From the IMG/VR virus record IMGVR_UViG_3300045988_041431: 5,533 nt of DNA; one strand, given 5' to 3'. The translations under genes and the position numbers were made by a program. Source of the stretch: a virus. Positions 1-5,533 of the stretch are shown here, in pieces. Under the pieces are notes generated by a model. It had not been told where the DNA came from. It searched no databases and worked only from the letters and a program-made list of their open reading frames with translations. Every line of letters begins with the position of its first letter. Within the stretch, counting starts at the first letter, position 1.

Positions 1-77
1 TACTGTTGCGCCTGTTTTGCGCTTGAGGTTGCTAGCTCGCTCGCTGCCTGTTCCCAGCTTTTCGCACTCTTAAGTTG
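1..77. repeat. Terminal direct repeat, copy 1 (circularisation overlap of a 5,456-nt circular genome)
   Basis: Positions 1..77 (tactgttgcgcctgttttgcgcttgaggttgc...cgcactcttaagttg) are identical to 5457..5533. The copies are direct and sit at the two extreme ends. The VP2 reading frame continues without interruption across the implied junction. Confidence 0.97.
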
Positions 78-680
78 TTTTGCGCTGGTGGCCTGTTTTG
101 CTAGCTGTAAGTATTTGTCTGCTAGCTCTGCCGTGTTGTTGCCGTATTCGTACATCGCGGATACGCTTGCAGCCTGTGCGCTCTGCTGGTTATAACGTTG
201 GCTTCCAATACTTGCAGATGCTCCCGATGGTGCGCTTGTTGCGCCGTTGGTCGCTGCTAGAATAGGATTGATGCCCGCTGCGATCATGTCCTTTACGGTA
301 TCCTGATAGGCTGTTCCGCGCATTTCCTTTTGGAATGCTCGTTCTGCTGCTGCTTCTGCGCTGTTGTATTTCTTTGCGCTTGCTTGGCTTCCAGCATTTG
401 CGAGGTTGCTTAGTAGTCCGCTTATCATTTGTAGTGCGTTTGCGGTGTTTACACTGCTCTGGTTGCCAAATGTGGCAATACCTGTTGGCGTGCTTATTTG
501 CGTTGAACCTATCTGTTGTGGTCCTGTTACGCTGCCTGTCGTGGCCTCGCTGCCTGTCGTGGTTTCGTTGCCTGATGCTTGGTTGTTTTTGGCGCTGCTC
601 TGGTTACTGCTCGTTATGATGCCTGTTAGCATGCTTAGCCCTTGCATGAGGTATGGCATAAAGCTTAATAACGTCTCCAT
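1..680 (-). CDS. VP2: DNA pilot / minor capsid protein VP2 (analogue of phiX174 H), N-terminal 226 codons; the gene wraps the circular junction and ends at 5279 (285 aa in total)
   Basis: The start is ATG at 680..678, with an in-frame TGA immediately upstream at 683..681. I checked this minus-strand frame codon by codon and it has no stop down to position 3. Positions 2, 1 and 5456 then form TAC, and the frame runs on to TAA at 5281..5279. The translation contains AERAFQKEMRGTAYQDTVKDMIAAGINPILAAT, the conserved core I recognise from Microviridae VP2 proteins. The flanks are rich in Gly/Ser/Thr/Gln/Ala, and the gene sits directly downstream of VP1. It is missing from the ORF track because it runs off the window edge. 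Confidence 0.85.
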   Translation of the reverse strand, partial: METLLSFMPYLMQGLSMLTGIITSSNQSSAKNNQASGNETTTGSEATTGSVTGPQQIGSTQISTPTGIATFGNQSSVNTANALQMISGLLSNLANAGSQASAKKYNSAEAAAERAFQKEMRGTAYQDTVKDMIAAGINPILAATNGATSAPSGASASIGSQRYNQQSAQAASVSAMYEYGNNTAELADKYLQLAKQATSAKQLKSAKSWEQAASELATSSAKQAQQ

Positions 681-718: not shown

Positions 719-2371
719 TTAAATTCTTTCGATGCCGGGAATGCTGTAAATAGGCATTTCGCGGTACCACTGTTCGTTGAAATAGAAGTCACATAAGAAC
801 TGGTGTGACTTGGCGCTTGTTACTGCAATCGTTCGGTCAATGTTCTCGGTGCCTTCCTGAATCCACTCTGCCGAGAGACGCGGAAGCGCGTTATAATCGT
901 CTGCATAGTGCCATGCGTCCAAACTGGTTTGATAGTTCGATCGCATTTCTCCGGTTACGTAGGAAGGTTTGTAGCGGTAATCTGCCCATGCCTCTTGATA
1001 GCCGAAAATTTCGTTATCTTCGTCCGTGCCTTGTGTATAGATTTCACGGTTATACACTGGCTGTTCGCCCAGCGCTGCCAAACGCGGGTCGTAGTATGTG
1101 AACCGTCCGCCACGTGTCCACTTGGTTGCAAGTCCCTGCTGGTAGCTGTGTTCTACTCGTACCACTGCCAGACCGATGATATAGCCGTATTCGGTCGCTG
1201 CATAGTCAACCATCTCTTTACTGCATGTGGTCAGACTGTATGCTGCTGTATTGCCCAGTGCCTGCCCGGTTTTCTCGTCCGTCTGGCTCGTCTGTACGAC
1301 CTGATTAACGTTAATGGCGATACGCTGCCCGCCGATGTATTCAGGAATCTGCAGTCGGCTGTCCGGACTTGTCACGCCCCACGTGCCGGAAAGGAACTCG
1401 CGATAGCGAGTGCCGTTTCTCGCATCAGTTTCAAAAATGTGCTGCAAGGCAATTGCCATGCGCAAATCTTGAATGCTGATTGCGTTTACTCCGCTGAGGT
1501 CTGTGCCTAGGAATTTCATCTGAATTTGTTCTTCATCTTTTCCAGTTACTCCCATTACGTTTCCAAAGTTCTGCATACTGCCGTTTGTAGTTAGCGTCAG
1601 TTGAACTGAGCTTGCTGTTTGAGTTGTCAACTCTGCATTGTTATACATTTTTACTGGTGCATTGCCTGTTAGGCCGATTTCCACAGGGTCATTTTTTAGC
1701 GGCTTTGGCAAGCAGCTGGTGAAGTAGTCGTGGAACTTGCCCGCTTTTGCGGGTTTCGTTGCGTATATTGCACCCTCTGATGCGATTGCAGTAAATTCTG
1801 GTTTATTGGCGTATTTTTCTTTGTCTGCATCTGGGTCTGATGACCTTCCTCCATCGTCAGTTTTATTGTATCCTACCATTATTGGTGCTTCAAGGTTTTC
1901 ATCTCGAAACCACTCGTTATAGATCATCGCATAGGCGCGCGCTGGGAGTGCGTTTACTTCTATCGGTACATTTGTCGGGATTCCAAAGTAATCTCCGATT
2001 GATCCGCTTTTAATGCCGTTGCCTTTGATTTTGGTTTTCGGTGTGGAATATTCGGTCTTTTCTGCCCAATAATCGGTATCGTTCTCGCCGAACATATTTT
2101 CCCAGTGTTCCCACAGCAGACGGCACGGAACAAAGAAGAAATATGTATCCATGTACGCGTTATCCATCACTGGATAGATTGGCGTACTCATACGAATAAG
2201 GCCGTTAAGCTGTACTCGCGCGGTATCACCCGGAAGCACTTCGTCGCAGTAGATGGGCACTAAATCACCTTCATTGATGGTCGTCAACAGCTGGTGACTT
2301 CGGTCAAATTTGCTTCGTGGTCGCTCCATCCGTGGCACTTGCGCGAAATGGTTTTCACTGTTTCTGTTCAC
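719..2371 (-). CDS. VP1: Major capsid protein VP1 (Microviridae F-protein family), 550 aa, GTG start
   Basis: This is the 550-aa ORF in the track. It carries hallmark gokushovirus VP1 motifs: an N-terminal HFAQVP..RPRSKFDRSH....GDLVPIYCDEVLPGDT, then DYFTSCLP, then SIQDLRMAIALQHIFETDARNGTRYREFLSGTWGV.SPDSRLQIPEYIGG. Codon 2371..2369 is GTG, preceded by GGGAGAAGTAAGA (SD-like GGGAG, 8-nt spacing). The stop is TAA at 721..719. A long poorly conserved segment at about aa 170-290 (about 1502..1864) fits the gokushovirus surface-loop insertion. No separate spike (G-like) gene is present. Confidence 0.95.
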   Translation of the reverse strand: MNRNSENHFAQVPRMERPRSKFDRSHQLLTTINEGDLVPIYCDEVLPGDTARVQLNGLIRMSTPIYPVMDNAYMDTYFFFVPCRLLWEHWENMFGENDTDYWAEKTEYSTPKTKIKGNGIKSGSIGDYFGIPTNVPIEVNALPARAYAMIYNEWFRDENLEAPIMVGYNKTDDGGRSSDPDADKEKYANKPEFTAIASEGAIYATKPAKAGKFHDYFTSCLPKPLKNDPVEIGLTGNAPVKMYNNAELTTQTASSVQLTLTTNGSMQNFGNVMGVTGKDEEQIQMKFLGTDLSGVNAISIQDLRMAIALQHIFETDARNGTRYREFLSGTWGVTSPDSRLQIPEYIGGQRIAINVNQVVQTSQTDEKTGQALGNTAAYSLTTCSKEMVDYAATEYGYIIGLAVVRVEHSYQQGLATKWTRGGRFTYYDPRLAALGEQPVYNREIYTQGTDEDNEIFGYQEAWADYRYKPSYVTGEMRSNYQTSLDAWHYADDYNALPRLSAEWIQEGTENIDRTIAVTSAKSHQFLCDFYFNEQWYREMPIYSIPGIERI

Positions 2372-2392: not shown

Positions 2393-2842
2393 TCATTTTT
2401 TCTCTTCATCTCTCTGATCAGGCTCTTCTGTGTTGTCCGTTTTCGTCATTTTGCCCAATTTTTCTTCTGGCTTCGGCTGTTCGGTCTGCTGCATCTGTTT
2501 CAGCTGTTCCATTGTTTCGGCTGCTGCCTCGGCCTTTTCGTGCATCGTCATGATATCCTTCGGCAGATTTTCAAGGTCTGTTCCTTCGGTGTATATCACG
2601 CTTTTTGCCTTGATGCTGGTGTCTCCCGCTTCCAGCCGTGCGATTGCGCTTGCAAGGTCGTAGCCCTCGCCCGCTCTCTGGATTTTTTCGTATGTGTTCT
2701 CATCCGGCTGCTCGATGTAGTTGGTTGTGCCGTTCGGTTGTTTAACCGCTTTCCACGTTGGCGCGGTCTTGCTGCCCGGATTGTTTACCACTCTCTCGGT
2801 CGGTAGCCCGTAGTACCTTACCAGTGCTTCAGGATTTAACAT
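2393..2842 (-). CDS. Acidic 149-aa protein, candidate internal scaffolding protein (VP3-like)
   Basis: ATG at 2842..2840 is preceded by AAGGAGACGACCA (SD AAGGAG, 7-nt spacing). The start overlaps the end of the upstream 84-aa ORF by 14 nt. The TGA stop at 2395..2393 lies 21 nt upstream of the VP1 GTG. Its size, position directly upstream of VP1, the central helical segment LENLPKDIMTMHEKAEAAAETMEQL and a very acidic Glu/Asp/Lys tail all resemble gokushovirus VP3. The function is assigned by position and composition, not by a recognised strict motif. Confidence 0.6.
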   Translation of the reverse strand: MLNPEALVRYYGLPTERVVNNPGSKTAPTWKAVKQPNGTTNYIEQPDENTYEKIQRAGEGYDLASAIARLEAGDTSIKAKSVIYTEGTDLENLPKDIMTMHEKAEAAAETMEQLKQMQQTEQPKPEEKLGKMTKTDNTEEPDQRDEEKK

Positions 2843-3083
2843 TGGTCGTCTCCTTCAGGTCGATGAGTCGTGCGATGTGTTCAGGCATTGCTTCGCTCAT
2901 GTGGCCGTTTTCGGTGTCGAATTCGCCCAGTTCTACGAGTGAAATATCTTCGATTTCGCTTTGTTTGCTTTCGTTGGCCTTCCATCGTGCCGTCCGGACC
3001 GCCTGTGCCCGGTTGTTCTGCAGAAACGGCTGTGAGTAGCCATTGGTCAGCGCATCGTGGAATGAATAGAATACCAGTTTCAT
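2829..3083 (-). CDS. Small 84-aa protein, probable conserved Microviridae non-structural protein of unknown function
   Basis: ATG at 3083..3081 is preceded by TAAAGGAGAAAAAA (SD AAGGAG, 6-nt spacing). The SD overlaps the stop of the upstream 38-aa ORF. The N-terminal pattern MKLVFYSFHDALTNGYSQPFLQNNRAQAVRTA and the later LVELGEFDTENG resemble a small protein I recall recurring in gokushovirus genomes. That resemblance is from memory and unverified. Confidence 0.6.
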   Translation of the reverse strand: MKLVFYSFHDALTNGYSQPFLQNNRAQAVRTARWKANESKQSEIEDISLVELGEFDTENGHMSEAMPEHIARLIDLKETTNVKS

Positions 3084-3094
3084 TTTTTTCTCCT

Positions 3095-3211
3095 TTACTC
3101 TTTGTCTTTGTTTGCGTCCTTTAGTGCGTGGTAGATTTCATCGAGCTTATCAAGAATGCTCATCATCAGTGCAATCGCTTCCTTAACGTCCTTGATCTTG
3201 ATCAATGCCAT
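3095..3211 (-). CDS. Unannotated 38-aa ORF (MALIKIKDVKEAIALMMSILDKLDEIYHALKDANKDKE), hypothetical helical peptide
   Basis: ATG at 3211..3209 is preceded by GAAAGGAGGTAACTTA (SD AAGGAGG, 7-nt spacing). The TAA stop at 3097..3095 is embedded in the SD of the next gene, which indicates translational coupling. I translated it by hand. It falls below the length cut-off of the ORF track. Confidence 0.5.
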   Translation of the reverse strand: MALIKIKDVKEAIALMMSILDKLDEIYHALKDANKDKE

Positions 3212-3242: not shown

Positions 3243-3359
3243 TTACAGTCGGATTCCGCCGCGTGAGATCTTCGGTCTTACGTTGATATTCTTTACCCGC
3301 TTTGCAGTCTGGGTAAAGCGCTTCTGGTCGCCTTGACCTGCTCCGCTTCTGTGTGCCAT
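3243..3359 (-). CDS. Unannotated 38-aa highly basic peptide (MAHRSGAGQGDQKRFTQTAKRVKNINVRPKISRGGIRL), candidate DNA-binding/packaging protein (phiX174 J / chlamydiamicrovirus ORF8 analogue)
   Basis: ATG at 3359..3357 is preceded by AAGGGGGTGTAAAA. The SD lies inside the last codons of the peptidase gene, whose TAA stop ends 2 nt before this ATG. The peptide has 10 Arg/Lys and 1 acidic residue in 38 aa. It ends in RGGIRL, which I recall as typical of the small basic ORF8-type peptides of gokushoviruses. The stop is TAA at 3245..3243. I verified the frame codon by codon. Confidence 0.7.
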   Translation of the reverse strand: MAHRSGAGQGDQKRFTQTAKRVKNINVRPKISRGGIRL

Positions 3360-3361
3360 TT

Positions 3362-3754
3362 TTACACCCCCTTTCTGTATTTTTCATTTCGTGTGTCGAA
3401 ATGTACCCAGTTGTTATATACGATGATACCGCCGCTGTTCGGCACGATACTGTTTAGCACTTTTGCAAGTTCTTTTGGCGTCACTCCGTTCGCTCTGATG
3501 TCTGCCGCCATGCCTCTCGTATGGTAGCTGTATTTTGCTCCTCCTACTTTTTCGTTGTGGCTTATTGTGCGGTATCCGCTTGTGATTACAATTGGCTTAT
3601 TGATTTTTTTTCTTGCGATTTCTAGAATGACCGCCAAATAATCGTCAACGAATACGATTGGCGTCCCGTCTTTGCACGCAAATTCTTTTACTTTGAAGTG
3701 GTCTGTGATTTTTTCGTTTCCTTGTTCTTTTGCTAGATATGCTTTGATTTCCAT
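3362..3754 (-). CDS. Zinc peptidase of the M15 family (Peptidase_M15_3 / M15A-like, D-Ala-D-Ala carboxypeptidase fold), 130 aa; probable peptidoglycan hydrolase (endolysin)
   Basis: The translation MEIKAYLAKEQGNEKITDHFKVKEFACKDG...ITSGYRTISHNEKVGGAKYSYHTRGMAADI...NNWVHFD contains the family signature SGYR..N..VGG..S.H..G.AaD ... vHfD, with the Zn ligands H, D and H in the expected order. The preferred start is ATG 3754..3752, preceded by GAAAGGAACAAAGGAC (AAGGA). The track's 201-aa version begins at a GTG inside the end of Rep, has no SD, and reads through an AT-rich spacer that contains a consensus promoter. Confidence 0.85.
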   Translation of the reverse strand: MEIKAYLAKEQGNEKITDHFKVKEFACKDGTPIVFVDDYLAVILEIARKKINKPIVITSGYRTISHNEKVGGAKYSYHTRGMAADIRANGVTPKELAKVLNSIVPNSGGIIVYNNWVHFDTRNEKYRKGV

Positions 3755-3800
3755 GTCCTTTGTTCCTTTCGTCCTCTGCAATTCACATTGCGTTATAAAC

Positions 3801-3829
3801 ATTTTATCATTTGTCAAGTGGTTTTGCAA
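3801..3829 (-). promoter_or_regulatory. Sigma70/SigA-type promoter with extended -10, between Rep and the peptidase gene
   Basis: The minus strand reads TTGCAA (3829..3824), a 17-nt spacer AACCACTTGACAAATGA, then TAAAAT (3806..3801). The spacer ends in TGA, which gives the TGnTAAAAT extended -10. The element lies 47 nt upstream of the peptidase ATG in a stretch that is only 16/60 G+C (3781..3840). Confidence 0.55.
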
Positions 3830-3950
3830 TAATTTTAACCAAATTGTAATATTTTTTGTCCTTTGTTTTGAATGGCGCTTTAGCGCCCTGCCGTGTGGAG
3901 CGCATGCGGAACTCGGCTTAATAAATTCTTCCTTTTTAGCGCTGTGCGCG

Positions 3951-4940
3951 TCAAACTTTTGGTTCACGCCACTTTTGCTTTAGCTTGTCCTTTTCTTTCT
4001 GAATGTTTAGATAGGTTTCATAATCCACGCTGGTGCTCTGTTCGAGATTGATCAAACTTTGTATTGCACTGCGTCTGCGTCTTGCTCTAACCTCTCTCAG
4101 CTCGTCAGAGTGTGCCTTAAAATAGCTTTCAGTCTCTTGGCTGGTATCCTTATCAAGTATTTTGTCAAAATAGCGTGGTGGCCTTTTCTCGTGCCCTCCT
4201 GCGCATATGATGCTATCTGTTTTCAAGATTTCATCTTTGTGTTCGTTCAGATACTTTTCGCCGATGCCTTTCGACATGATTCGGAACTCTGGCTCTCTGC
4301 CTTCCATCCAGTATTTTGCCGCTTGCTCTGCCCCTATGGCTTTTTTGTTGACGTATTGTGCCACGTATGCAAAGCTCCCCGGCTGTGCTGGTGAAAAGTC
4401 TATCATGCCTTTGCCCCAGATTTTTTGTAGCCACTCGCTTTTGAAATAGCTGTTGCCTTTTTGGTTTTTATACCATTGCGCATCCGGTGGTTTCAGTCCA
4501 AATACTATTGCGTGATAGTGTGGTCTTTTTGTTCTGTCACCATATTCAGCTGCTAGAAAGTATTTTATTGGCTTTTTGTATGCTTTTCGTAGCCGCTTTA
4601 TAAATAGCTGCACGTCTCGTTTGCTTACTGTCTGGCTTTGAATGCTTCTGTAGCCTTTGAGGATCTCGCCGTATGGGATATGTTCATCGTCATATGTTAG
4701 TGTTAGGAAAATTACATCGTCCCATTCTTTGGCTTCTAGTTCTATTCTGGTTGCCCATTGGTCAGCCATCTGTTTGCGGCAGTACTCGCACTTACCACAT
4801 GGTAATAATGCGAATTTTCCTTTTTTGATTCCGTCCATGATGTCCGTTTGCAGTCCTTGCTTGGATAGGTTTTCCAGACTTCCCCACAGCTGTGGTTTTT
4901 TCGTGTCCATCTGAAATACTAATGGTTTTGTACATGGCAT
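3951..4940 (-). CDS. VP4: Rolling-circle replication initiator VP4 (HUH endonuclease, phiX174 protein A family), 329 aa from ATG 4940 (334 aa if GTG 4955 is used)
   Basis: The track ORF contains the Cys cluster LPCGKCEYCRK, motif 1 VIFLTLTYDD, the HUH motif 2 RPHYHAIVFG, and the double-Tyr motif 3 FAYVAQYVNKK. I prefer the ATG at 4940..4938 because it gives the N-terminus MPCTKPL, matching the M.C..P start typical of Microviridae VP4. The GTG at 4955 lies inside a hairpin stem only 3 nt after the SD. The stop is TGA at 3953..3951. Confidence 0.93.
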   Translation of the reverse strand: MPCTKPLVFQMDTKKPQLWGSLENLSKQGLQTDIMDGIKKGKFALLPCGKCEYCRKQMADQWATRIELEAKEWDDVIFLTLTYDDEHIPYGEILKGYRSIQSQTVSKRDVQLFIKRLRKAYKKPIKYFLAAEYGDRTKRPHYHAIVFGLKPPDAQWYKNQKGNSYFKSEWLQKIWGKGMIDFSPAQPGSFAYVAQYVNKKAIGAEQAAKYWMEGREPEFRIMSKGIGEKYLNEHKDEILKTDSIICAGGHEKRPPRYFDKILDKDTSQETESYFKAHSDELREVRARRRRSAIQSLINLEQSTSVDYETYLNIQKEKDKLKQKWREPKV

Positions 4941-4947
4941 TTTTGTT

Positions 4948-4982
4948 ACCGGCACAAGCCTCCTTGTCTATCTTGTGCCGGT
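4948..4982. promoter_or_regulatory. Perfect 11-bp stem / 13-nt loop hairpin covering the Rep translation-initiation region
   Basis: The arm accggcacaag (4948..4958) pairs with cttgtgccggt (4972..4982). The loop cctccttgtctat (4959..4971) carries the complement of AAGGAGG. On the mRNA the SD therefore sits at the 3' side of the loop, the GTG at 4955 is inside the stem, and the ATG at 4940 lies 7 nt past the stem base. The structure is read directly from the sequence; its function is unknown. Confidence 0.5.
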
Positions 4983-5035
4983 TGACACCTCGCTTCCTTT
5001 TAATATTAACTTGTTGTAGTCGTAGTAGTAGTAGC

Positions 5036-5215
5036 GTGGAAACTGTTGAAAACTCGTTTTTTTAACGTTACTGCGTTTATTTATTGCCTTTTTGCCTGTT
5101 GAAAACTTTGTTGAAAACTTGTTGAATTGTTGAAAGTTCGTCATTATGACGAAAACCTTTGTGCAACTTTATGTTGAAAACCTGTGGAAAGTGTTGAAAA
5201 CTCAAGTTTTCCACA
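5036..5215. repeat. Iteron-like array in the VP2-Rep intergenic region (core TGTTGAAAAC)
   Basis: Perfect TGTTGAAAAC copies lie at 5044..5053, 5097..5106, 5109..5118, 5172..5181 and 5192..5201, all in the same orientation. Degenerate copies lie at 5121..5128 (GTTGAATT) and 5129..5137 (GTTGAAAGT). In the central cluster the GTTGAAAAC cores start at 5098, 5110, 5121 and 5129. An 18-nt composite GTGGAAA[C/G]TGTTGAAAAC occurs twice (5036..5053 and 5184..5201). An inverted partial copy GTTTTCCACA lies at 5206..5215. Confidence 0.8.
5137..5153. repeat. 17-nt perfect palindrome TTCGTCATTATGACGAA embedded in the iteron array
   Basis: The arm ttcgtcat (5137..5144) and the arm atgacgaa (5146..5153) are reverse complements around a central t. 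In ssDNA this can form a 7-bp stem with a 3-nt loop. Its 5' end abuts the last degenerate iteron. Confidence 0.7.
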
Positions 5216-5242
5216 TTCTCTATTTTTTGGATTATTGTTACT

Positions 5243-5270
5243 AAAAAAGGGGGATGTTTTGCCATCCCCC
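5243..5270 (-). terminator. Rho-independent terminator downstream of VP2
   Basis: The minus strand reads TAA GAAAAGGA [GGGGGATG GCAAAA CATCCCCC] TTTTTT AG. The stem is 8 bp (5249..5256 pairing with 5263..5270), the loop is 6 nt, and a T6 tract follows at 5248..5243. The structure begins 8 nt after the VP2 stop. Confidence 0.8.
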
Positions 5271-5278
5271 TCCTTTTC

Positions 5279-5533
5279 TTAGTTTCCTTTGTATGCGTTG
5301 AATGTGTCCATGTTTGGCATGATTGGCACTCTTTGGTTGTACTTTTTGAAGTTTCCTGCTGTGTCTTTGGCTGCTTTGCCAGCCTTTTTTGCTGCGTCTT
5401 TGGCTGCTTTACCAGCTCCTGCAAGGCCTGCACCTAACTTGCTAGCTGCATAGGTGTACTGTTGCGCCTGTTTTGCGCTTGAGGTTGCTAGCTCGCTCGC
5501 TGCCTGTTCCCAGCTTTTCGCACTCTTAAGTTG
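5279..5533 (-). CDS. VP2: DNA pilot protein VP2, C-terminal part (the same gene as 1..680; 5457..5533 duplicates 1..77)
   Basis: I checked this frame codon by codon from 5455 down to the TAA stop at 5281..5279. The translation is ...QQYTYAASKLGAGLAGAGKAAKDAAKKAGKAAKDTAGNFKKYNQRVPIMPNMDTFNAYKGN*. The unique coding part is 5279..5456. Confidence 0.85.
   Translation of the reverse strand, partial: QLKSAKSWEQAASELATSSAKQAQQYTYAASKLGAGLAGAGKAAKDAAKKAGKAAKDTAGNFKKYNQRVPIMPNMDTFNAYKGN
5457..5533. repeat. Terminal direct repeat, copy 2 (duplicate of 1..77)
   Basis: This segment is an exact 77-nt match to 1..77. Confidence 0.97.

Follow-up and report, generated by a model that had tools for sequence, protein, structure and literature searches.

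M15_3 peptidases of gokushoviruses were described by Roux et al. in 2012, who found them in five human-gut gokushoviruses and six alpaviruses, traced the gokushoviral enzymes to Faecalibacterium-type Firmicutes, noted the holin neighbors of the genes in these donors, and proposed a role as endolysin (PMC3394797). Kirchberger et al. (2022) list peptidases among the few accessory genes of microviruses and report that the peptidase segment has recombined between distant microviruses (PMC9239249). M15 peptidases have been reported in Occultatumvirinae, Amoyvirinae, and a Bacteroides microvirus as well. The Gp7 protein of the microvirus Ebor was purified and is a peptidoglycan hydrolase, active in zymogram and plate assays, of which a trace was detected in virions by mass spectrometry (PMC11980548), which demonstrates that single-stranded DNA phages are able to employ enzymes of this type. 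Inhibition of wall synthesis is the lysis strategy of very small phages, as exemplified by protein E of phiX174 (summarized in PMC3394797). Here, we describe the M15 peptidase gene (3754..3362, minus strand) of the gokushovirus IMGVR_UViG_3300045988_041431, which was analyzed over its entire length of 5,533 nucleotides (nt), referred to as the window in the following, and we ask how such an enzyme, which comes with neither a signal peptide nor a holin, might act.

The M15_3 peptidases of gut Gokushovirinae from humans and pigs (KX513868; KX513876, ARQ16041.1; KX513864, ARQ15993.1; and many MG945xxx records) are the same gene in the same virus group and habitat, and both the function as endolysin and an acquisition from Firmicutes phages had been suggested for them. 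In KX513868 (L002), which encodes the closest M15 protein in GenBank (ARQ16010.1, 93.8% amino acid [aa] identity), the enzyme has 130 aa and its gene is placed after VP4, as in the window. The closest GenBank genome is KX513876 (L001), which matches 88% of the genome at 90% nt identity, but its M15 protein is only 60% identical to that of the window. There is no essential difference between the window and these known genomes; it is the combination of backbone and M15 gene that differs, and an open reading frame (ORF) of 60 to 68 aa, present in most relatives, is lacking. With publication in 2012, an annotation as "peptidase M15" in KX513868, KX513876, and KX513864, and occurrence in hundreds of genomes, there is nothing new in the feature. 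A first inspection of the DNA (hereafter, the sequence-only reading) had taken it for a rarity among microviruses and thereby overestimated its novelty, since the gene is very common in gut gokushoviruses. Ebor Gp7 is like the M15 protein in being an accessory peptidoglycan hydrolase of a microvirus, but Ebor belongs to another subfamily ("Tainavirinae") with another host (Rhodobacter capsulatus), Gp7 is called a lysozyme, and a 45-aa predicted membrane protein is encoded as well; the two are likened by description only.

The M15 gene comprises 130 codons and the stop codon (3364..3362) and encodes a protein of 14.6 kDa with an isoelectric point (pI) of 9.5. A single domain, residues 19 to 120 of 130, matched the Pfam family Peptidase_M15_3 (PF08291) over profile positions 2 to 108 of 108, with 78.7 bits far above the cutoff of 23.2 (E = 4.3e-22), and PHROG 894, "endolysin," was matched with E = 4.6e-42. 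The assignment to the M15-family zinc peptidases, made in the sequence-only reading from motifs, is thus confirmed, and the motifs are where they had been placed. The first, SGYRTISHNEKVGGAKYSYHTRGMAADI (SGYR...H...AADI; residues 59 to 86, 3580..3497, minus strand), contains R62 (3571..3569), H78 (3523..3521), and D85 (3502..3500); the second, VHFD (residues 117 to 120, 3406..3395, minus strand), contains H118 (3403..3401) and D120 (3397..3395). H78, D85, and H118 are the predicted zinc ligands, and the pattern H-x6-D ... H is complete together with the arginine of the SxxR motif. In an alignment of 34 sequences that spans the microviral and the tailed-phage clades, all three ligands are invariant, as are R62, W116, and D120; altogether, 25 residues, noncatalytic ones included, are invariant between the two clades. 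The NCBIfam model of the peptidoglycan L,D-endopeptidase MepK (NF053624) was hit with 42.2 bits against an equivalog cutoff of 185 and describes a distant relative only.

The AlphaFold (AF2) model of the protein has a predicted local distance difference test (pLDDT) score of 94.9 and a predicted template modeling (pTM) score of 0.88. A Foldseek search of this model against the PDB gave 1lbu as the top match (probability of 1.00), along with VanY, Ply500, Hedgehog N-domains, ChiX, LysECD7, LysB4, and VanX; VanX and VanY had been named for comparison in the sequence-only reading. Against BFVD, template modeling scores (TM-scores) of 0.91 to 0.95 to phage "Peptidase" proteins were obtained. According to the model, the fold is that of the Hedgehog/DD-peptidases (LAS/MD clan). 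The zinc D-Ala-D-Ala carboxypeptidase of Streptomyces albus G (1LBU, MEROPS M15A) is the best match of solved structure by both sequence and fold, and it was the sole real match in a direct sequence search of the PDB (E = 3.5e-4); the metallo-beta-lactamase and cadherin hits of that search (E > 0.05) were dismissed as noise. R138, H154, and D161 of 1LBU, of which H154 and D161 are zinc ligands, align with R62, H78, and D85 of the window protein. However, 1LBU is a secreted protein of 213 aa with an additional N-terminal peptidoglycan-binding-like domain, and with 27% identity over 89 columns, its specificity is not transferable.

The open frame of the M15 gene reaches back to GTG 3967 (3967..3362, 201 aa). 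A 201-aa protein was rejected, as the extension is not conserved, the homologs mostly have 129 to 130 aa (97 of 120 cluster representatives), and stops lie upstream in relatives: in 48 of 57 related genomes, an in-frame stop is found no more than 30 codons upstream of the M15 start. Furthermore, the gene was called twice independently on this genome in public data, both times with 130 aa, and the sequence comparisons thus support ATG 3754 as the true start. The ratio of nonsynonymous to synonymous substitution rates (dN/dS) is 0.09 to 0.16 in comparisons with the nearest relatives and has a median of 0.21 across 53 pairs, and the gene is therefore under purifying selection.

Neither a signal peptide nor a hydrophobic segment of the signal-anchor-release (SAR) type was found in the M15 protein: the N terminus, MEIKAYLAKEQGNEKITDHF, is polar, residues 3 to 7 form a beta-strand inside the folded domain of the model, and the most hydrophobic stretch of 19 aa has a Kyte-Doolittle mean of 1.16 and lies within the fold. 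A wall-binding or other extra domain was not found either. By hydropathy, Pfam, and the model, the 130-aa protein is, as the sequence-only reading had described it, a catalytic domain alone. To look for a holin, all ORFs with ATG, GTG, or TTG starts and a length of 25 aa or more were scanned in the three coding-strand frames around the circle for a Kyte-Doolittle mean of at least 1.6 over 19 aa. No coding-strand frame of the window reaches this value; the maximum, 1.42, belongs to the N terminus of the pilot protein VP2, and the earlier statement that there is no obvious holin holds. The same scan of 57 M15-carrying gokushovirus genomes from IMG/VR that are complete or nearly so gave no holin-like ORF in any (0/57), one VP2 N terminus (L065, 1.73) aside, and a hydrophobic ORF overprinted in the manner of phiX174 E was likewise absent from the three coding-strand frames of the window and of the 57 relatives. 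In a control set of tailed-phage, prophage, and Clostridia M15 loci, on the other hand, 48 of 53 have a hydrophobic same-strand ORF (40 to 200 aa, same threshold) within 1.5 kb, often abutting the M15 gene. The absence of holin and signal peptide is therefore a property of the whole clade and not of the window genome alone, which extends the caveat on export raised in the sequence-only reading.

Two candidates for a partner were rejected. Hydrophobic ORFs on the plus strand (e.g., 3672..3983) were set aside as by-products of the T-rich antisense strand, the coding strand being A-rich with few hydrophobic codons; the plus-strand ORF opposite the M15 gene is truncated and different in KX513868. 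A conserved 38-aa ORF (3211..3095, minus strand) was considered as an M15-specific partner or holin substitute; it has no membrane segment, is slightly acidic, and is also present in the M15-less gokushoviruses L085 to L088.

The origin of the gene is seen from its relatives. Homologs of the M15 protein fall into 1,251 clusters (90% identity) at E ≤ 1e-5; the best 120 are 66 to 95% identical, and the nonfragmentary ones among these are mostly on contigs of about 5 to 6 kb. In IMG/VR, at least 579 contigs encode an M15 relative. Outside the microviruses, the nearest relatives are the 137-aa endolysins of the Faecalibacterium phages FP_Toutatis and Lelie (AUV56799.1 and XAI97673.1; 47% identity), which are immediately followed by two proteins, one of 131 aa (hydropathy of 2.59) and one of 105 aa whose hydrophobic segment (1.91) is C-terminal. 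The best cellular relatives are 38 to 51% identical and are nearly all from gut Clostridia (Faecalibacterium, Oscillospiraceae, Acutalibacteraceae, and Lachnospiraceae). These relations place the origin of the microviral gene in lysis cassettes. The endolysins of Faecalibacterium phages and Clostridia prophages are, like the window protein, single-domain M15_3 enzymes (about 137 aa) with the same 25 invariant residues. They differ in that the tailed-phage genes are followed by genes for strongly hydrophobic, holin-like proteins, which the microviral genes lack; in a loop of 7 residues immediately preceding GWVH, which is missing from the microviral enzymes; and at the C-terminal end, which reads KSRWxG in the tailed-phage enzymes and KYRKGV in the microviral ones.

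Within the gokushoviruses, the gene does not follow the backbone. Two lineages were distinguished, with the window proteins as the reference for all identities: lineage A is window-like (VP1 76 to 89% identical) with the order VP4-M15-J-38aa-VP5-VP3-VP1-VP2, and lineage B (VP1 about 40% and VP4 about 38% identical) has the order VP4-...-M15-38aa-...-J-...-VP1-VP2. The window M15 protein is 85 to 94% identical to those of the lineage B genomes L005, L006, L009, and L010 but only about 60 to 65% identical to those of most lineage A genomes, so that a near-identical M15 (94%) occurs alongside VP1, VP2, and VP4 proteins of only 38 to 47% identity (VP1, 39 to 43%). The segment 3353..3951, which reaches from the Rep stop to a point just beyond the M15 stop, has 91% nt identity to KX513868, a genome with a VP1 of about 40% identity. 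By sequence comparison, the window genome is thus a mosaic of a KX513876-like backbone and a KX513868-like M15 segment, an exchange of the kind that Kirchberger et al. (2022) had described. Conversely, in KX513864 (L169, 1388-1780) and KT264784 (L171, 4461-4844), whose backbones are close to the window (VP1 74 to 76% and VP4 81% identical), the M15 proteins are 44 to 45% identical and the genes are placed after the J-like and 38-aa genes, which points to an independent acquisition or a replacement. The gokushoviruses L085 to L088 have the same set of small genes and no M15 gene. Because M15 identity is discordant with the backbone and M15-less relatives exist, the M15 gene is, as judged from these sequences, an accessory, free-standing module that was gained or replaced repeatedly.

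In sum, the reading that we favor, with a probability of about 0.62, is that the M15 protein is a soluble, endolysin-type zinc peptidase with an accessory role at lysis, i.e., at the exit from the cell. In this model, an M15A/M15_3-type zinc peptidase would be made in the cytoplasm as a soluble protein and would cut the peptide stems or cross-links of peptidoglycan. The gene would derive from a lysis cassette in a tailed phage of gut Clostridia (of the Faecalibacterium/Oscillospiraceae type), would have been picked up from there without the holin, and would later have passed repeatedly from one gokushovirus backbone to another as a free-standing module that brings its own upstream region. The wall would be reached through a membrane lesion that is not made by a canonical holin. 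Since M15-less sister viruses exist, the backbone must breach the cell by another route, and the M15 protein may exploit that lesion; candidates are the primary lysis function of the M15-less sister viruses or the membrane insertion of excess VP2 pilot protein, whose hydrophobic N terminus is the only candidate for release visible in the sequence. An exit endolysin is favored because the nearest relatives are lysis-cassette endolysins, which also makes the putative endolysin of the sequence-only reading its best-supported proposal, and because the substrate-facing residues are the same as in these enzymes; the 25 residues that are invariant across the microviral and the holin-associated tailed-phage clades argue for an unchanged substrate. 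With this role, the M15 protein would be comparable to phiX174 E as a microvirus lysis function without a holin-endolysin pair; however, E is a membrane protein of 91 aa whose gene is overprinted in gene D, and it acts nonenzymatically as an inhibitor of MraY. What makes the case worth following is that a gokushovirus clade keeps a tailed-phage endolysin under purifying selection with a holin in 0 of 57 genomes, compared to 48 of 53 donor-type loci. The export route, or an action inside the cell, would bear on the mechanism of gokushovirus lysis and on whether gut microviruses infect Clostridia, as is suspected.

Several observations speak against this model. The M15-less sister genomes indicate that the backbone completes its cycle without the enzyme, and the contribution to lysis may be minor. 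No holin, signal peptide, or SAR segment was found in the window or the 57 relatives, which counts against an endolysin mechanism, as this requires a release step; at the same time, the hydropathy scan is blind to ORFs of less than 25 aa, to nonstandard starts, and to soluble lysis factors. The assignment of a Clostridia host, finally, would follow only from the homology of a gene that moves horizontally; no integrated gokushovirus prophage that would name the host was present among the cellular M15 matches, the best of which are no more than 51% identical.

The lesion may come from an equivalent of a holin that escaped the scan, such as a very short or noncanonically initiated membrane peptide, the N-terminal helix of VP2 acting from the inside, or a holin of the host or of a prophage. 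Microvirus pilot proteins insert into membranes, and it is the VP2 N terminus that tops the coding-strand hydropathy, in the window as well as in L065; moreover, the length and start codon limits of the scan leave room for such a peptide, and Ebor does encode its small predicted membrane protein. We nevertheless consider this unlikely, as none of the 57 genomes passes a threshold that 48 of 53 control loci meet, the exchanged segment 3353..3951 contains no such ORF, the A-rich coding strand is poor in hydrophobic codons, and VP2 is also present in M15-less viruses and is hence no dedicated partner. A somewhat more doubtful possibility is that the enzyme travels with the virion and makes a local opening in the wall through which the VP2 tube reaches the membrane, either during entry alone or during entry and exit alike. 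The P5 protein of phage phi6 acts at both stages. For a packaged enzyme, the missing export device would be no problem, domains of the M15A fold are fused to baseplate Gp5-type and very large virion proteins in tailed phages, Ebor Gp7 was detected in virions, and the probable donors are phages of Clostridia, a role at entry mattering most with a thick-walled host. But the M15 protein consists of the catalytic domain only and has no segment able to dock to a capsid, its closest homologs are free endolysins in lysis cassettes, and Ebor Gp7 was present in the particles only in traces (PMC11980548). In addition, M15-less relatives exist, and the discordance described above, with a 94% identical M15 in backbones sharing 38 to 47% of VP1, VP2, and VP4 and variants of 44 to 65% in close backbones, shows that there is no coevolution with the structural proteins; a gene that moves independently of these argues against a specifically packaged virion enzyme.

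The absence of holin and signal peptide throughout the clade would also be accounted for if the enzyme did not have to leave the cytoplasm at all. By hydrolyzing UDP-MurNAc-pentapeptide or the stem of lipid II at the inner face of the membrane, in the manner of VanX and VanY, it could starve wall synthesis until the growing cell lyses and so act as an enzymatic "amurin." This would need no holin and fits the rule that small phages lyse by blocking wall synthesis (PMC3394797); precursor hydrolases that act in the cytoplasm (VanY, VanXYc, and VanX) are among the Foldseek matches, and the loop of 7 residues before GWVH was lost in the microviral clade. On the other hand, the 25 residues shared without exception with the holin-associated tailed-phage enzymes suggest that the substrate did not change. 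Endolysins of the M15 kind build up in the cytoplasm harmlessly until the holin fires, which also speaks against lysis from within, and we regard this explanation as improbable. The stronger claim by analogy, that the M15 protein alone lyses the cell from the cytoplasmic side and would thus found a new class of enzymatic amurins in single-stranded DNA phages, is more improbable still; if true, it would be an enzymatic form of single-gene lysis.

Sequence signals upstream of the M15 gene suggest how the peptidase is expressed. A putative, purine-rich ribosome-binding region, AGGACGAAAGGAACAAAGGAC (3775..3755, minus strand), abuts ATG 3754, and a promoter-like site (3829..3801, minus strand), identified by consensus match only, has the form TTGCAA-17 nt-TAAAAT with an extended -10 TG and lies about 45 nt upstream of the M15 start. 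In a consensus scan of the minus strand of the window, three of seven promoter-like sites fall within the 200 nt between Rep and the M15 gene, and a near-consensus TTGACA-17 nt-TGnTAtAAT occurs at the corresponding position in many relatives. Because such sites lie directly upstream in both the window and its relatives, the M15 gene probably heads a transcription unit. Most relatives have a soluble ORF of 60 to 68 aa (e.g., MLKMTHTYELKVFKDDGSTKTVLKL...) in front of the M15 gene (KX513876, 4264-4470, minus strand; KX513868, 1781-1963), which is the ORF that the window is without.

Upstream of that position, directly 3′ of the Rep stop, lies a conserved noncoding element of about 95 nt (3854..3951, minus strand), with a hairpin GGCGC-TAAA-GCGCC and a second motif, GCGCTAAA. 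Its nt identity across 55 loci is 85 to 96%; these loci come from two lineages that share only about 40% identity in their core proteins. The element marks the upstream limit of the exchanged M15 segment. As the M15-less genome MT135268 has it too (and L085 to L088 do not), we rejected the idea that it is part of a mobile M15 cassette. A structured RNA was rejected as well, the folding energy being ordinary (z = 0.26 and -0.74) with no match in Rfam. The element may be an origin or a regulatory site.

The remaining genes are those of a gokushovirus. The window ends, 1-77 and 5457-5533, are an exact direct repeat of 77 nt, and the window is therefore a complete circular genome of 5,456 nt with a 77-nt assembly overlap. 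An identical genome is present in public metagenome assemblies (SAMN06111971/SRR5091603), where the 130-aa M15 gene and both 38-aa genes were called independently. Every gene is on the minus strand. Rep/VP4 (4955..3951; Pfam REP_ORF2-G2P; PHROG 942, E = 5e-108; annotated in KX513876), which likely starts at ATG 4940, is followed by the M15 gene, the genes of a basic J/VP8-like protein of 38 aa (3359..3243; PHROG 10695) and of the 38-aa protein mentioned above, and those of VP5 (3083..2829; Phage_ORF5) and the VP3 scaffold (2842..2393), both recognized by Pfam and PHROG profiles. The capsid protein VP1 (2371..719; Pfam Phage_F, E = 1e-150) and the pilot protein VP2 complete the set; VP2 (PHROG pilot/minor tail protein, E = 2e-113) is a circular ORF that runs from 680..1 across the junction to 5456..5279. 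The position of the M15 gene between Rep and the J-like, 38-aa, VP5, VP3, VP1, and VP2 genes agrees with the sequence-only reading, which had placed it between Rep and the structural genes of a microvirus.

Both small genes downstream of the M15 gene are widely kept. The J-like ORF (3243-3359) starts 3 nt after the M15 stop, is present in 57 of 57 relatives, and encodes a very basic protein ending in RGGIRL, which is probably a DNA-binding protein of the J/VP8 type; the feature tables examined for related GenBank records do not list it. The 38-aa ORF at 3095-3211 (MALIKIKDVKEAIALMMSILDKLDEIYHALKDANKDKE) has a perfect 3-4 heptad pattern, is coiled-coil-like, and has a pI of 5.7. It is found in 55 of 57 relatives with 62 to 92% identity, better conserved than VP1 or VP4, and is unannotated in nearly all GenBank relatives listed.

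Further elements were observed in the noncoding regions of the minus strand. Between VP2 and Rep (5044-5215), there are five exact copies of GTTTTCAACA, a number reached in 0 of 200 shuffles, together with the related motifs GTGGAAAAC and TTTCCAC; in lineage B relatives, the homologous repeats are located between VP4 and the M15 gene in the opposite orientation. These repeats probably also account for the mechanically called ORFs 5433..5077 and 5144..4968. Just upstream of Rep ATG 4940, a perfect 10-bp hairpin (4949-4981), CCGGCACAAG...CTTGTGCCGG, presents a Shine-Dalgarno sequence (AAGGAGG) in the loop and may control the translation of Rep; GTG 4955, the Rep start in the ORF list, sits within its stem. 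Terminator-like, GC-rich hairpins followed by a T run are found between VP1 and VP2 (689-708; AGCCCCGCAAAAGCGGGGCT and ATTTTT) and directly after the VP2 stop (5248-5271; GGGGGATGGCAAAACATCCCCC and TTTTTT).

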